A stretch of DNA of 64,000 nucleotides from Naegleria gruberi (lineage: Eukaryota), in the NCBI GenBank assembly GCA_000004985.1, contig GG738892.1. The stretch is one strand, 5' to 3'. Position 1 is the stretch's first letter; the number at the start of each line of letters is the position of its first letter. The translations under genes and the position numbers were made by a program. Below, in pieces: positions 6,765 through 17,798 of this stretch. Under the pieces are notes generated by a model, which did not search any database, was not told the origin of the DNA, and was given only the letters and a program-made list of their open reading frames with translations.

Positions 6765-8195
6765 TTAAAATTTAACTTTATGGAAATTCATGAAAAACGA
6801 GTATTGGTTGAACATTTCTTTGCCAGCAATATTATGAATCAAACATTTACCAATTATTTGATTTAGTGCAACATAGCCTGTTGTTACATGAATGTTTGAA
6901 TCAATTAATCTATATCCAATAATTGGATGAACCGAAGAGAGACACTTTTTGATGTTGGTGAAATATACTCTTTGCTCTTTAACCTCAACAAATTGACCAA
7001 CAAGTAAGGAACCATCCTTTGCCTTAAATAAAATAAATTCTTTGTTTTGTACAATTGGAATCCATTTCTTGTTTTCAGATTGATTTCTTACCCAAGGATA
7101 ATTGATGTTAATTTGTTTTTGAAGTTTTTCAAAATTCGCTCCTCGTTGTTCTAAATTTTTGTGATTGGAAGAGTCATTAAATTGTTTGAAAACTTTGTGT
7201 TTCAATTCAAAAAGCAATGCCCAGAAGAACCTGGCATTTCCCCACTTCAAACAATCTTCAAAAATATGAGAATTCCAATGAAAATTAGGATTTGTAAAAT
7301 TACCATTACCATATAGGGAAATGACTTGTTTCCTGAAATTGAAATGTTTCAATTTTGCAATTTCAATATTTGAAGGTGAAACCAAATCTTGAATCAAAGA
7401 AAGTACGTATTCTACGTGATTTGACCAACATATTATATGTTTCTTCTTCAAACTGAATGAAACATCACAGTGATTCTTATTATTAATAAGAAAATCATAC
7501 ATAATTGGGCAACTAAAAACCACGAATTCCAAAAAATGATCTGCTGAACAATCATTGTAATCTTTTGCAATCATTTTCAAAGGTTTACCATGATTGTTTG
7601 TATACTTGTCCATAACAGACTGAAAATCACTTAAAATGTTGGTGTAATTGAAATATTTGAAAAATTTTTTAAGGTGTCTCCTTAAATCACCTTGAATAGA
7701 ACCATGCATTAATTCAACAGTTGAATTTTCAAAAATATCACAATCCTTAATTTGTAAAAACGGACACTTCATTTGAGTATTGTTACTTTGTCGAACTTTT
7801 TCTTTTACCTGTTTGGATTTTTTGGACTTGGAATCAATCTGCATATCTTTGATTTGAATATCAGCGACTGTAATAAACTTGTAGCCATTACATGAGGTAC
7901 CAATTGATAATTTTTGTTGCATTTCAATTGCTTCAGTAACAGTTCTTAAAGGATAGACTAAAGGTGTTGAAATGTCATTAGGACATTTACAATAATCTCC
8001 TTTTGGGCATTTACATTTAGAACATGTATAGCTTTCAAGAAATAATGATAGCCATCTTTGTACAGAATCCCAAATCCAAGGACCTATTAGAATTCGAATC
8101 TTTTCAATTGAATCAGTGTAAGAGTTATAANNNNNNNNNNNNNNNNNNNNNNNNNNNNNNNNNNNNNNNNNNNNNNNNNNATTATTATTTTCCAC
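6765..8195 (-). CDS. Hypothetical Cys-rich protein; the N-terminal region is interrupted by a 50-N assembly gap
   Basis: 476-aa ORF containing a CSKCKCPKGDYCKCP cysteine cluster. I recognise no domain. The run of X residues near the N-terminus corresponds to the N-run at 8131..8180. Confidence 0.5.
   Translation of the reverse strand: MENNNXXXXXXXXXXXXXXXXXYNSYTDSIEKIRILIGPWIWDSVQRWLSLFLESYTCSKCKCPKGDYCKCPNDISTPLVYPLRTVTEAIEMQQKLSIGTSCNGYKFITVADIQIKDMQIDSKSKKSKQVKEKVRQSNNTQMKCPFLQIKDCDIFENSTVELMHGSIQGDLRRHLKKFFKYFNYTNILSDFQSVMDKYTNNHGKPLKMIAKDYNDCSADHFLEFVVFSCPIMYDFLINNKNHCDVSFSLKKKHIICWSNHVEYVLSLIQDLVSPSNIEIAKLKHFNFRKQVISLYGNGNFTNPNFHWNSHIFEDCLKWGNARFFWALLFELKHKVFKQFNDSSNHKNLEQRGANFEKLQKQININYPWVRNQSENKKWIPIVQNKEFILFKAKDGSLLVGQFVEVKEQRVYFTNIKKCLSSVHPIIGYRLIDSNIHVTTGYVALNQIIGKCLIHNIAGKEMFNQYSFFMNFHKVKF
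8131..8180. other. Assembly gap (50 N)
   Basis: Run of n characters in the sequence. Confidence 0.99.
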
Positions 8196-10890: not shown

Positions 10891-12465
10891 TTATTGGAGA
10901 TCAGCAAGTTCAGTTTCCTTTTGCTTTAACAAATCAACAGTGCAAGCATATGGTGTTTCGAAATCCAAGTGATATTCACAAGTGGATGGTTCATCAACCT
11001 TACCCAAAACATTTTGAGGACCACACTTGAAGTGAACAATGGCCTTTCTGGCACCAACCTTCCAACAATGTTGACCATCAGTGAAGGACATTTGGTTAGT
11101 TTCAGTGTTGAATTCCTTAAAGTTACCAAGGAGAGTAGAGGAGTGACCTTCTTTTTGATGAGCATTATTGAATGGACAAACTTCATACTTGTATTTCTTT
11201 TGTTCCCATTCGAAACATCTTTCACTAATCTTGAAATATTCACCATTCTTACCATAATTGATAGCCAATTTCTTTTGGAGATCACTATGTGAGTTCTTTA
11301 AGGTGTCAAGTTCATTGTTAACTTCATTATACTTATTTCTAGCTTCCTCAGCATCTTTTAAAATTAAATTAAGGGATTGTTTGTCATGTACATTGTGGTG
11401 GAATCGGAGTTTATACAGGGAAATGATGTGTTTAAGGGATTGAATTGGTTCAGTAAGAATGGATGATAGGGCTTTGTTGATTATTTTAAAAATTTAAAAC
11501 TACTTACCTGGCAACTTGAAGTTATTAAGTTCATCATCATCAAAAAATTGGGCTGGTTCTTCAACTTTTGGAGGTTCAACATTTTCTCCAGTTGGTTGTT
11601 CTCCTTCAGTATTTTCTCCAGTTGGTTGGTCAACTGCAACAGGTGTTGGTGCTGGTTCTTCCTTTTCTTTGGCAGCTTGAGCTTCTTCCCAATCTCTCAT
11701 CTTCTTAGCTCTGAGCAAGTCCTTTTCGAGTCTTTCAACTCTTTCAGCTTCTTCCTTCTTTGTTTGCAATTCATTTAATGTGGTTTCCTTTTCAGTAATC
11801 TTGGATTGCAAATCATCTGATTGAGTTTTCATTTCAGCAAGCTTATTCTTACCATATTCAAGATCAGCATAGACAGAATGGATTGCTGATTTAATGGCAG
11901 CAATTTCATTTTGTAAACTAGCAACAATTTCCTTTCCTAAATCTTTACAGGTATCTTCACAAACTCTGAGAGATGCTTCACCCATAGAAGAGGCAAAGTT
12001 TTCATCGGAACCATCACAACAATCACAAACACCACTATTCAATTAATAATAATATTTAAATACATCTAAATGATCCTCGTATTCATGTACTTACTCGTTA
12101 ACCTTGCTGTGGGAAATGTATTGTGATTTGTAGTGCTTATTTCTACAATAGAATTTAACATCATCACTAAAAGAAAGATCGGAATTACTACAAGCACTTG
12201 TAGCTGGTTCATCACTTCCATCAGCACAATCACAATAATTATCATTTACAGAAGAGAAGGGAATTTCCTCATTCGATTTTAAACATTTAAATTTTTGGTT
12301 TTCAGATGTTTGTGTGTATTTATCCAACAAATCGCTTGGCACTCCGTATGTTGTTCTTTCCTTTGGAGTCAAGGATCCATTGACAGCAAAGATAGTGGCC
12401 ATCATCAGGATAACTACAACAGCCAACATACAACAACTAGTAGCTGAGGTTTTCATTGTATTCAT
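10891..12465 (-). CDS. Glucosidase II beta subunit (PRKCSH-like), at least three exons (approx. 12091..12465, 11500..12042, 10891..11268)
   Basis: Features in N-to-C order:
- a signal-peptide-like N-terminus (MNTMKTSATSCCMLAVVVILMMATIFA)
- two CDCxDGSDE LDL-receptor-like Ca-binding motifs (NYCDCADGSDE and GVCDCCDGSDE)
- a long coiled-coil with an acidic stretch
- a C-terminal mannose-6-phosphate-receptor-homology (MRH) domain (CFEWEQKKYKYEVCPF...HCWKVGARKAIVHFKCG...CEYHLDFETPYAC). Confidence 0.75.
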
Positions 12466-12654
12466 TTTTTTAGGATTTGAAAAACGTGTTTTCTTTGTAT
12501 CGATACATAAAGATCGGAAGTAAGCTTTAAGAATCATCATCATCATATGAATGTCTAATATTATTGGTAGAAATAGATTCTGAATATCAAGGTGAATGAA
12601 TATAGATAATAAGAGAACATGTGAGAGATTAGAGAATAAATTAGAGTTATATTT

Positions 12655-14224
12655 TTAAACAACATTTTCAGTGGAAAAGTTAATTGGTACACAATCAAGT
12701 GTTTTCAAATTAATGAGAACAATTGTTGGACAAGAAACAAATTCAGGAACACAAACCAAACGAGATTTAGTTTCTTTCACTGTCACGAGGGTTGTTTCAA
12801 ATTTAGGGCAATTACCACAAATCATAATGTGGGGTGTATGTTTCATTATAAATGGATCAGTATCTTTGAATGGATAACATCCTAATCATAAGTTTCAGTT
12901 TTACAAAGATAATTATCAAATACTTACTCATGGTATCAGGGGCACTTGGTGCATAATGTCCCCATTGTAATAAGTTCTTCATTACTTCCAATCTAGAGGA
13001 GTAGGTTGAGTACTTTTCAATTTCTGCAACAGTTTGACCAGAAGTAACAAAAACACTGAGAATTGTGTTAAGATTAAATTTGAACAAATTAGAAAACTTA
13101 CTCCAATCCATTCTCTTGAATCAAATGTGGATTAGTAACAAGACGACATGTAGAGAAAGGGGAACTTCTTTGAAGCATAAATGGGTGGATAGGCTGTTGT
13201 GGAATAGTTACGTTCGATGGATCATTAGGACCAGGCATTACATCAACGTCAACAGTATTCACCAATTGTTCTACGAGTCCATCGAATGATTTCATGTGAC
13301 CAGCAATCGAGCTCAATTCTTTTGGTCTCAATGACTAGATTGTAAATATAATGTCACTCGAAGGAAAAATGTTGAACTACTTACACCTCTGACATCAAAT
13401 CTCTTTCCTTCATCTTCAGCTGCAATAACACCATTTCCTGCAATAATTACACGTGAAATCTTAGCTGCAACATCATTAACAAAAGCTCCACTTCCAGCTA
13501 ATCCATTAATAAAATCAAATGCCATTTGTGTGGCAACAACATCATATTTTGGATGACCAACACAAACGCCAGAAATTACAGCCAAATAGGCATCCTTTTG
13601 AGGAACTGTGATAGATCTTTGAGGTGGTGGATCATTAAAAACGATATCTTTGGCGATAAATGTTCCAGAACTATCAATTTGTCCATACAAGCCAGCAATA
13701 ATACCTGTGACTAATTGACTTGTCATTAATCTATTCTTCTCAGAGTTCTTACTTTCAAAAACGACATTACATCTCGAACCATTCAAATCTTCCAAAATTA
13801 AATAATCACTATCTGATACAAAGTTGTCTAATAATTCAACCTTCTCAGCTTCAAAGTTTTTTTCGGTAGTGAATTCTCTCAAAATATTTGGCTTTAGTTT
13901 CATTTCCTTGTAAAGAGTACCAGCAACAGTATATTCCACTCCCATAGTGAGATCCAACATTGATTTTGCTGTTGTGGCATTTGGATACATTTTAGAAATT
14001 TTCTTCAAGAGAGCAGGCTTCATAGTCTTGATTCTATGAGCATATAATTTAGAAAATTGTTGTGTAAATGTTTTATCATTTAGAAGGAAAAGATCCTTTG
14101 ATGCGGAGGTGTGTTGTGTCTGTTCTCTTTCAACTTTTTCAGTGTGTGTTGTACTTGCCGATGATGGCTTGTTTAAAAGTGAAGAAGAAGCAATATTGTT
14201 GGCCAAAGTTTTTGATGATGACAT
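12655..14224 (-). CDS. POLD2: DNA polymerase delta small subunit (POLD2/Pol31), about four exons
   Basis: Exon 1 is 14224..~13340 (MSSSK...RFDVRG). The following exons contain AGHMKSFDGLVEQLVNTVDVDVMPGPNDPSNVTIPQQPIHP and a C-terminal PHIMICGNCPKFETTLVTV...VCVPEF. These are collinear with human POLD2 ([27 protein letters not shown] ... PHVYFCGNTPSFGSK). Confidence 0.8.
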
Positions 14225-14337: not shown

Positions 14338-15171
14338 TTAATAACTCATTTCATCTGGTTGAGGACCCTCTTCTTCATCTGTATCATTGTAATAAGAATA
14401 ATAAGGAATATATTCACTGATAACATCGTTCACATTCGATTCTGCCTCTGTAAATTCCATTTCATCCATTCCTTCAGCTAAATACCAATTTACAAATGCT
14501 TTTCTTCTAAACAACTTTGAGAACTCCTCTGAAGTGAATTTCAAGTAGTTACTCATAGCACTTGAACTAGCCAGGAGAGAGCCACTTCTTTTGAATCCTT
14601 GTTGAGCAACTTTGCAATAGGAAGATTGAAAGTTATTTGGAATCCATTCATGAAAGTACGAGCTTTGATAAATACATGTTCTAAATAGTTCGTTTTCGGC
14701 ATTGGAGGTAGTAAAGTCTCCTCTAAAGGTGGCTGAACAAGTGTAATATCGTCCCTCTTTGGGATTGAGTGAGGCCAAAAAGTGCGAAGGAACCAACAAT
14801 TGGCGTACAATGTCTGTAAGTTGAATGTCAGTGTTATCCATCCCCTTAATTTGTTTTCCAAGAGGTGCCATTGAAGACACTAAAAAGTGAATACGAGGGA
14901 ATGGTATCATGTTAGTTGCCAGCTTTCTCATATCATTATTGACGAACCCATTAAATCTGAACGAGCAAGTTTCAGCACATAGCGACTGAGCAATAACCTT
15001 ATTCACATCTTCTAGATTTGCTTTTTCTAATTCAATCTTATTTCTACAAATATTATACACAGCTTCATTATCATAAAATTTCACATAATCAACAAATTCT
15101 ACAAGGTTTTGCAATTGTAGTATTGAGTTGTATGGTGCCAGCACTCCGTCTGACACGTTCTNNNNNNNNNN
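14338..15171 (-). CDS. Divergent beta-tubulin-like protein; the 5' part is lost in an assembly gap
   Basis: The C-terminal two-thirds of a tubulin is present. [17 protein letters not shown] matches beta-tubulin [27 protein letters not shown] matches SYFVEWIPNN, and [34 protein letters not shown] matches [34 protein letters not shown]. Several other blocks are strongly diverged. The N-terminus runs into the N-run. Confidence 0.75.
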   Translation of the reverse strand, partial: [277 protein letters not shown]

Positions 15172-15624
15172 NNNNNNNNNNNNNNNNNNNNNNNNNNNNN
15201 NNNNNNNNNNNNNNNNNNNNNNNNNNNNNNNNNNNNNNNNNNNNNNNNNNNNNNNNNNNNNNNNNNNNNNNNNNNNNNNNNNNNNNNNNNNNNNNNNNNN
15301 NNNNNNNNNNNNNNNNNNNNNNNNNNNNNNNNNNNNNNNNNNNNNNNNNNNNNNNNNNNNNNNNNNNNNNNNNNNNNNNNNNNNNNNNNNNNNNNNNNNN
15401 NNNNNNNNNNNNNNNNNNNNNNNNNNNNNNNNNNNNNNNNNNNNNNNNNNNNNNNNNNNNNNNNNNNNNNNNNNNNNNNNNNNNNNNNNNNNNNNNNNNN
15501 NNNNNNNNNNNNNNNNNNNNNNNNNNNNNNNNNNNNNNNNNNNNNNNNNNNNNNNNNNNNNNNNNNNNNNNNNNNNNNNNNNNNNNNNNNNNNNNNNNNN
15601 NNNNNNNNNNNNNNNNNNNNNNNN
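15172..15624. other. Assembly gap (453 N)
   Basis: Run of n characters. It removes the 5' end of the tubulin gene and the 3' end of the upstream membrane-protein gene. Confidence 0.99.
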
Positions 15625-16757
15625 TTCTGGCATAGTTCAGAGCTCTGATTGCAGGAATAGTTGTCAAAATTATTACTTGACTCATGGCATAAAAGGAAAG
15701 AATTACTGGAATAGGAATAATATAATCCACCAATTGATTCAAAATGTCAATGCGAGGAAGTGCAAAACTGAGTATGACACAAATTAACATTAAGGTTGTC
15801 GTAACTGATGCTTCCAATTTGATTCCCCAAGTGTCCTTTTCCCTAATAATTACCAATATTAAACAACAAAGAGTAATAATTCCATAAAGGCAATAGAATG
15901 CAATGTACAGAGGAACTGTATTTGGTTTGGTTAAACAACCAGTTCCGAATTGTTTCCATCCGAAACTTGGATAATTATGAGTAAAAGACTCTGGACCCAA
16001 AACCTCAATCATTCCAAGCACCAACCAAATAATTGAATGAAGAGAGAATAAACCAATTTGAACGATCAACAAGAACTTATTACTTAGAAGAAACTTGTAC
16101 ATAATCAAGAGTTTCTTCTGATAGTTACTAAATTGCACTTTCAATGATTGAGAACTGTCATCTTTTTCTTGAGAGATGATATCATTCACAACTTTCTGAA
16201 CTTGTGACCTGTTATTAGAAACATCACCAACTGCTTCTGGAAAACTTGATTTCATAGTTAATAATTGAAATAATCGACCTCGTATCACAAATGAAAAGCA
16301 AGCATACCTTAAAATTATTATTTCTAAAAAAGGGAACGAGAAAAACTACATACATGGCTGGAAGTGGCATAGCCCAACACAAATTGAACGCCACAAATGA
16401 AAATAATCCACAAGGAAAGATATCGCGTCCTATAATCCATCTTAGACACGGTATTAAAACATGTACAGTCCCAGCCATAATATTCGACAAAATCCAAAGC
16501 ATTCCTCTCGAATGAATATGTCCACTCTTTCGTTTCAGAAAGACAACAATCAAAGTAAAGCATAATATTGGAAGAAAGAAAAGCAACATAATAGAAGAAA
16601 ATATAGGAACAATAATGGTATCTGGACATGCTAACATCATCTTGTCTGCTGACGACGACGATAATGAGTTATTGAGCAGTAGAAGAGTATTGACACCTCT
16701 AAAGGGTATCCCTAATTCAAATAATAGAGGATTACAGGGTAAAGAAGATGTATTCAT
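15625..16757 (-). CDS. Multi-pass transmembrane protein, possibly two exons (16757..~16300 and ~16288..15625); C-terminus lost in the gap
   Basis: Both parts consist of several hydrophobic helices: ...IVPIFSSIMLLFFLPILCFTLIVVFL... and ...LLIVQIGLFSLHSIIWLVLGM...YIAFYCLYGIITLCCLILVII.... No family recognised. The X-containing ORFs 15089..16288, 15018..15635 and 15128..15787 are artefacts of translating the N-run. Confidence 0.35.
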
Positions 16758-17156: not shown

Positions 17157-17798
17157 TTGATGACATCTTTAATTAGTGAAATTCGTGTAAAGGAGACTTT
17201 TCTTGAAACTAATTGTACGGTCACTAATAGGAATATCAATTCCTTTAAATGTTGTCAGAAAACATGCTCATACTGCTCGGAATGCAAAGGCAAAAATCCC
17301 AGCTGTCTGGAATCATATGTTTCCATCAATTCTTCAATGGATTGTTGTGATGGATATTCATGTTGTGGAAATTGTTGTGATACATGTGAATCATGTGACA
17401 GTGATGGGAAGTGCACCTCTTACTCATGTAATTGTGTGTGTTGTACAGAAGCCATTGATGAATTATGCACTTTGAGTTGCAGTGAATGTTGGTCTCCCAA
17501 TGTCACAATGCATTACTTGACAGTTGGGGGCTATGTTTCATCAATAATGAAAACGGAATGTAAAACAAATTTTGATTGTGTGGATCAGTATTTTGAAAAG
17601 TGGCAACAGAATGAAACCTATCTTTGTTATTACAATCCATATGATACCAAAGAATTTTCAACAACCAAGGAATATACGCCTTACAAATTTGGAATAATGT
17701 ACACATTTGCTGGCCTTAGTATTGCTTCAATTATTGGTTTAGTAATTTGTTGTGGTCTACTTGCAAGACCATTGTGGTCCAAACTATTAAATAGATAA
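17157..17798 (+). CDS. Cysteine-rich protein with a C-terminal transmembrane anchor
   Basis: Dense Cys spacing (CCQKTCSYCSECKG...CCDGYSCCGNCCDTCESCDSDGKC...) followed by a hydrophobic helix AGLSIASIIGLVICCGLLA near the C-terminus. A 5' exon encoding a signal peptide may lie upstream (unresolved). Confidence 0.45.
   Translation: MMTSLISEIRVKETFLETNCTVTNRNINSFKCCQKTCSYCSECKGKNPSCLESYVSINSSMDCCDGYSCCGNCCDTCESCDSDGKCTSYSCNCVCCTEAIDELCTLSCSECWSPNVTMHYLTVGGYVSSIMKTECKTNFDCVDQYFEKWQQNETYLCYYNPYDTKEFSTTKEYTPYKFGIMYTFAGLSIASIIGLVICCGLLARPLWSKLLNR

Follow-up and report, generated by a model that had tools for sequence, protein, structure and literature searches.

The question raised by this locus is whether a beta-tubulin frame that has diverged far from its class and runs into a scaffold gap belongs to a functioning gene and, if so, to which of the tubulin sets of Naegleria gruberi. 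The multi-tubulin hypothesis originated with Naegleria, and its flagellate and mitotic sets are now well described. The window, by which we mean the whole analysed stretch of 64,000 nucleotides from contig GG738892.1 (assembly GCA_000004985.1), carries the frame on its minus strand; the coordinates of all features are listed in Table 1. Our analysis indicates that the feature is very likely the 3' part (~60%) of the N. gruberi NEG-M gene encoding XP_002673246.1, a member of a small, N. gruberi-only group of hyperdivergent beta-like tubulins that is separate from the flagellate and mitotic beta-tubulins, and that the protein may act as a minor specialised or structural subunit. A preceding sequence-only reading had taken the feature for a highly divergent paralogue of beta-tubulin that is cut short by a gap in the assembly, and this description is borne out by the translation, the gap coordinates, Pfam, PDB and phmmer searches and alignment.

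The window has a G+C content of 33.8% and contains two runs of N, one of 50 N (8131–8180) and one of 463 N (15162–15624). The tubulin frame is formed by 273 stop-free codons, and position 15161 is the last real base before the larger gap. The size of this gap had been given as 453 N and the end of the feature as 15171, ten bases inside the gap; both values are corrected here. At the base composition of the window, the chance of an open frame of 273 codons is ~9e-10. The visible part corresponds to beta-tubulin residues ~174 to the C-terminus and requires no intron, and its alignment with beta-tubulins is collinear with a one-residue insertion as the lone indel. The translation is 100% identical to the 272-residue protein XP_002673246.1/EFC40502.1 (“beta-tubulin, partial [Naegleria gruberi]”), which is encoded on a scaffold of 342,059 base pairs (bp). 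The gene is already annotated in GenBank, is partial there owing to the same gap, and is not new. No mention of XP_002673246 or EFC40502 was found in the literature.

Across the gap and on the same strand, a different frame encoding a multi-pass membrane protein also enters the gap. Because both frames run into it, the missing 5' half of the tubulin gene has to lie in the gap, along with a spacer and the 3' end of the membrane-protein gene. An in-frame ATG at 15631–15633 (“MPE…”, listed as a 431-residue open reading frame) was considered as the tubulin start and rejected, since it lies inside the upstream membrane-protein frame; the continuity of frames across the gap is uninformative because the gap length is an estimate. 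A tblastn search for the tubulin N-terminal sequence elsewhere in the window gave no match, and the window holds no other tubulin.

The Tubulin_C profile (Pfam PF03953) matched residues 88–207 with an expectation value (E) of 7.9e-18 and a score of 65.3 bits (cutoff 26.6), covering profile positions 1–122 of 126. Of the GTPase domain (PF00091), just the final 37 positions are visible, and their score of 21.7 bits was under the 33-bit cutoff. In a search of PDB chains, the 60 best distinct sequences were all beta-tubulins, with a top E value of 1.2e-68 over beta residues 175–438. Searches with phmmer gave 195–234 bits against 12 beta references and 135–148 bits against 5 alpha references. At the junction of loop T7 and helix H8 (loops, helices and strands are designated T, H and S, respectively), the motif NNDMRKL carries the beta-type Lys (NSDLRKL in beta-tubulin), where alpha-tubulin has Glu (NVDLTEF). 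The S9–S10 loop is of beta length and is without the eight-residue insertion of alpha-tubulin. Both positions are established class markers in tubulin structures, and the Glu of alpha-tubulin is catalytic. In an AlphaFold2 model of the fragment, elements H5 to H12 and S6 to S10 follow each other in tubulin order, with a predicted template modelling (pTM) score of 0.65. The top 50 PDB matches obtained by Foldseek with this model were all tubulin entries, and the best were beta chains with template modelling scores (TM-scores) of 0.76–0.79 and E values of ~1e-23 (3e-24 at TM 0.77). Judged from its sequence, the protein is clearly a beta-class tubulin, and the three blocks previously taken as diagnostic of beta-tubulin were all located (conserved blocks in Table 1).

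The extent of divergence was quantified over a 253-residue core. The window protein is 42.5% identical to the N. gruberi flagellate beta-tubulin JGI 83350, 40.5% identical to pig beta-tubulin and 38–39% identical to the two N. gruberi mitotic beta-tubulins (37–42.5% for the beta references overall), and its identity to alpha-tubulins is 28–29%. Flagellate and mitotic beta-tubulins share 66–73% identity with each other, and beta-tubulin shares 39–41% with alpha-tubulin. The distance between the window protein and canonical beta-tubulin is thus about the same as that between beta and alpha, yet the protein remains clearly on the beta side. Among the 113 columns that are invariant in 12 reference beta-tubulins (mitotic ones included), 50 are altered in the window protein; retention is 56% for beta-invariant columns versus 31% for variable columns.

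The identities of single structural elements in Table 1 are relative to the canonical beta consensus. Strong divergence of the M-loop and of the region aligned to KGLKMSxTFIGNSTAIQELFKR had been pointed out by the sequence-only reading and agrees with the values obtained for the M-loop (0.13), S10 (0.11) and H11 (0.29). Two canonical nucleotide-contact positions are altered, namely Glu to Ala in T5 and Tyr/Phe to Leu in H7; T7/H8 still carries its Asn, Asp and Lys. In the tail, EEEGPQ is present instead of EEEGEF, and the terminus reads …PQPDEMSY compared with …EEQPADY in the N. gruberi flagellate beta-tubulin. EGEF is an axoneme motif (Pucciarelli et al., 2012, PMC3382179), and a C-terminal tyrosine is present on Naegleria beta-tubulin (Fulton, 2022, PMC9081340).

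Relatives of the window protein were searched in two protein collections. In a word-indexed search of 5.8 billion proteins, only ordinary beta-tubulins at 39–44% identity were found below the self-match. Several metagenome-derived and animal “beta-tubulins” (P0002–P0005) outranked true full-length beta-tubulins by bits despite lower identity; they were rejected as close relatives, since internally duplicated tubulin segments, probably the product of chimeric assembly or of chimeric gene models, inflate their bit scores. When 1.84 billion cluster representatives, including JGI, ENA and Logan proteins, were scanned exhaustively with HMMER, N. gruberi XP_002673357.1 (P0121, on a 339,217-bp scaffold) emerged as the nearest relative with 47% identity. 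The same scan recovered two more divergent N. gruberi beta-tubulins, XP_002671050.1 and XP_002670151.1, and gave no orthologue of the window protein in any other organism.

The four divergent N. gruberi proteins share derived motifs (an 11-residue H7 motif, SFRF, KLATN and FDN.AL), although even the nearest relative differs from the window protein at more than half of the compared positions. Among the four, the window copy has the most canonical H11'–H12, is the sole one ending in Tyr, and alone is partial, owing to the gap. The gene model of XP_002673357.1 begins MPKPIEATQTPP… and its first part (residues 1–45) contains neither strand S1 nor the T1 loop (MREI…GQCGNQIG), with T3 (SGNNWAKG) and T4 (GGGCGSG) both present in the model. 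The absence of T1 reflects either a mispredicted first exon or a real loss of the phosphate-binding T1 loop, of the kind described for some divergent beta-tubulins of Paramecium. In a neighbour-joining tree of 253 columns, the window protein and XP_002673357.1 are sisters with 64% bootstrap support, and the deep position of the window protein is not resolved.

In the tree published by Velle et al. (2022, PMC9036621), an N. gruberi tip of 819 nucleotides is sister to JGI 44710 (support 95.3/0.999/98) and has a terminal branch of 0.876 substitutions per site. Together with 53354 and 44804, these two form an N. gruberi-only clade that has no N. fowleri or Acrasis member, with 44840 nearby. The tip falls in a long-branch group sister to the canonical beta-tubulins (enclosing node 93/0.988/99). 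The window gene is very probably this tip, because 819 nucleotides equal 272 codons plus a stop and because the sister relationship agrees, and XP_002673357.1 is probably JGI 44710. The position of the long-branch group, basal to the canonical beta-tubulins, was likewise reported by Findeisen et al. (2014, PMC4202323). Fritz-Laylin et al. (2010) had catalogued the divergent N. gruberi beta-tubulins, and Fulton (2022, PMC9081340) treated them as part of a “bonus” set that comprises seven alpha-tubulin and five beta-tubulin paralogues; he considered their divergence so great that assembly of typical microtubules is unlikely.

Both the intermediate and the C-terminal domain of tubulin are kept, and the window protein probably still folds as a tubulin. 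In canonical tubulins, T7/H8, the H10–S9 loop and H11'–H12 with the tail form part of the minus-end (intradimer) face and of the outer ridge that binds motors and microtubule-associated proteins. The M-loop, H9, H10, the S9–S10 loop and S10 make the lateral contacts of the lattice and build the taxane pocket. Because the elements of the intradimer face and the outer ridge are the best kept, the protein may still be able to dock on a partner of the alpha type, perhaps one of the seven alpha paralogues that have diverged to an equal degree. Co-polymerisation into ordinary flagellar or spindle microtubules seems unlikely, since the lattice and taxane elements and H7 are almost entirely replaced and two nucleotide contacts are changed. 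More probably, the protein would be a minor and specialised component of one particular structure, by analogy with the beta-like tubulins of Tetrahymena, or a structural tubulin that is not dynamic.

The best experimental precedent is provided by BLT1 and BLT4 of Tetrahymena thermophila, which are used in microtubule arrays of the nucleus and kept out of cilia (Pucciarelli et al., 2012, PMC3382179). They are non-canonical beta-tubulins in which, as in the window protein, the M-loop is rebuilt and EGEF is lost. BLT1 has a one-residue insertion in the M-loop (Ser283) and the window M-loop is likewise longer by one residue; BLT4 has the base-stacking change Y222L and H7 of the window protein likewise has Leu (PMC3382179). 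Identity to canonical beta-tubulin amounts to 65% for BLT1 and 56% for BLT4, whereas the window protein is far more diverged (42%). The BLT-like insertion and Tyr-to-Leu change may be a convergence among non-canonical beta-tubulins. Among the very divergent beta-tubulins of Paramecium (formerly theta and iota), some have lost the P-loop and were proposed to be structural and non-polymerising (Findeisen et al., 2014, PMC4202323). The P-loop region of the window gene itself is in the gap, and the model of its sister XP_002673357.1 is without the T1 motif GQCGNQ and keeps GGGCGSG.

A wider proposal, which we consider unlikely, is that the N. gruberi-only beta-like clade and the seven divergent alpha-tubulins constitute a third tubulin system distinct from the flagellate and mitotic sets, with co-evolved pairs, rebuilt lateral contacts and altered nucleotide handling. 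If this were true, such pairs might form a polymer of non-canonical type or provide structural subunits dedicated to one organelle, for example the basal body, the rootlet or the cyst, and the window gene would encode one member of the system. Fulton (2022, PMC9081340) asked whether the bonus tubulins are specific to basal bodies, parts of the axoneme or the flagellate cytoskeleton.

Separate tubulins for mitosis and for flagella are classically exemplified by Naegleria. Its mitotic beta-tubulins JGI 55748 and 55900 (Velle et al., 2022, PMC9036621) are divergent, function-specialised proteins of the same organism and, like the window protein, have altered residues in the M-loop and at the taxane site. 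Mitotic versus flagellar tubulins had also been named by the sequence-only reading as a known example of specialisation. The example does not apply to this gene, which is almost certainly not one of the mitotic (spindle) beta-tubulins: the window protein is only 38–39% identical to JGI 55748 and 55900 and slightly nearer to the flagellate beta-tubulin, the mitotic proteins are without the C-terminal Tyr in which the window protein ends, and the mitotic clade was recovered without the window gene in 99% of the neighbour-joining bootstraps. Orthologues from N. fowleri and Acrasis kona belong to the mitotic clade, and expression of the mitotic forms in mitosis has been shown, whereas neither was found for the window gene, which falls outside that clade in the published tree. 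Orthology with 55748/55900 was accordingly rejected. Membership in the flagellate beta-tubulins, which are 74–75% identical to human TUBB1 and carry the EGEF axoneme motif, was rejected as well; identity to JGI 83350 is 42.5%, EGEF is absent and the C-terminal Tyr alone is shared. An origin deeper than a recent N. gruberi-specific offshoot, in an ancient separate class shared with ciliates (the former theta/iota and beta-like tubulins), would fit the ciliate proteins (e.g. of Blepharisma) found among the nearest non-Naegleria sequences in the neighbour-joining tree, and the divergent Stentor sequences beside which the published tree places the clade. This origin is nevertheless very improbable. 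The branches involved are very long (0.5–2 substitutions per site), so that the grouping with ciliate sequences may be due to long-branch attraction, which is the simpler reading, and the joint grouping is poorly supported (61.7/0.862/3 and 28.1/0.719/32). In the published tree, the clade contains no sequence from N. fowleri or A. kona. The tail …PQPDEMSY resembles the flagellate …EEQPADY, a hint that the gene descends from the local flagellate lineage, and Findeisen et al. class these sequences as beta-tubulins.

Several observations weigh against a functional, specialised N. gruberi subunit, and some of them would suit a pseudogene or gene relic, i.e. a duplicated beta-tubulin copy decaying after the loss of its 5' half or of its function. 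The missing ~167–174 tubulin codons amount to ~500–520 nucleotides, which exceeds the 463-N gap even before a spacer and the end of the upstream gene are accommodated; therefore, either the genomic copy of the gene is truncated or the gap is larger than stated. The latter is common in draft assemblies, whose scaffold gaps have estimated sizes. The GTPase half with the nucleotide-binding loops T1 and T4 falls in the gap, so the sequence-only reading was right to caution that the loss of the N-terminal half precludes a judgement on intactness, and a functional protein cannot be asserted. The fragment model is of moderate confidence only, with a predicted local distance difference test (pLDDT) score of 68.5, a value expected because the N-terminal domain is absent from the modelled fragment. 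H10, which is partly on the intradimer face, is almost wholly replaced, and binding of an alpha partner can for this reason be proposed only weakly. An orthologue by which purifying selection could be measured directly was not found in other organisms, and synonymous sites are saturated relative to the closest paralogue (47% identity). Expression evidence for the window gene was not found in the literature; the quantitative polymerase chain reaction of Velle et al. (2022) covered just 55748 and 55900. Peptides of the window protein were not found in the searched part of the alignment of that study, and the identity of the 819-nucleotide tip rests on length and sister relationship. Decay would also account for the alteration of 44% of the beta-invariant positions, nucleotide contacts among them. 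We nevertheless regard decay as improbable. In a neutral-drift simulation that started from the window frame at the window base composition (300 runs, to 42.5% amino-acid identity, ~340 substitutions), a mean of 10.5 stop codons accumulated and 0 of 300 runs remained stop-free, whereas the 273 codons of the window frame are free of stops and frameshifts. Conservation also follows structural elements (0.76 in H12 and 0.83 in the H10–S9 loop versus 0.06 in H10). Because there are no stops and just one 1-residue indel relative to canonical beta-tubulin, and because invariant columns are preferentially kept, the divergence appears to have mostly accrued under selection for an intact protein of the tubulin fold. 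The simulation argues against a long-dead pseudogene. The suggestion that the copy is pseudogenising is thus disfavoured for most of the history of the gene, and a recent inactivation or a real 5' truncation remains compatible with the data.

The protein, in the preferred assignment a specialised or structural beta-like tubulin of N. gruberi, is a reasonable candidate for examining how far a tubulin can drift and still be one, as it is only ~40% identical to canonical beta-tubulin and yet its frame is open and poor in indels and H8, the H10–S9 loop and H12 are kept. The present analysis describes no new entity; it adds a sharper description of the gene, with the caveat that no sequence of its 5' half has ever been obtained.

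Table 1 Features of the tubulin locus and its surroundings, with identity of structural elements to the canonical beta-tubulin consensus.
Feature	Positions	Strand	Identity	Remarks
Tubulin coding sequence, C-terminal ~60%	14341–15161	-		Translation; Pfam, PDB, database identity
TAA stop codon after C-terminal tyrosine	14338–14340	-		Translation
Scaffold gap, 463 N	15162–15624			Counted N run
T5 loop and start of H5	15130–15159	-		VVEPYN to VLAPYN; Glu-to-Ala change common to sister paralogue
Core helix H7	14968–15015	-	0.19	Base-stacking Tyr/Phe to Leu; adjacent DxN Asn kept
End of T7 loop, H8 and S7	14884–14934	-		Conserved block; beta-specific Lys kept where alpha has Glu
H8			0.62	
M-loop	14821–14865	-	0.13	Lateral protofilament contact; one inserted residue
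H9			0.12	
S8			0.70	
H10	14668–14718	-	0.06	1 of 17 residues matches beta consensus
H10–S9 loop	14632–14661	-	0.83	Conserved block
S10			0.11	
End of H11, H11' and H12	14410–14511	-		Conserved block; outer ridge of tubulin fold
H11			0.29	
H11'			0.75	
H12			0.76	
C-terminal tail	14341–14409	-		23 residues; short, acidic, without EGEF, ends in Tyr
DNA polymerase delta subunit 2 homologue (PF18018)	13328–14224 (first exon)	-		113 bp downstream of tubulin stop
Glucosidase II beta-subunit homologue (PF12999)	around 11500–12546 (exons)	-		Beyond PF18018 gene
Multi-pass membrane-protein gene, upstream	15625–16757	-		Short intron apparent near 16230–16306 (GT…AG); C-terminus lost in gap

Nothing at the locus suggests a functional link of the tubulin gene with its neighbours. 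Neither exon of the membrane-protein gene gave a Pfam match, and no tRNA gene was found in the window. The region from 11500 to 14224 is compact, as is typical of N. gruberi. On the plus strand, an open reading frame of 213 amino acids (17157–17798) encodes a cysteine-rich protein with many CxxC/CC motifs, a C-terminal hydrophobic segment and no Pfam match. The 50-N gap is located inside a long open reading frame on the minus strand (6765–8195).

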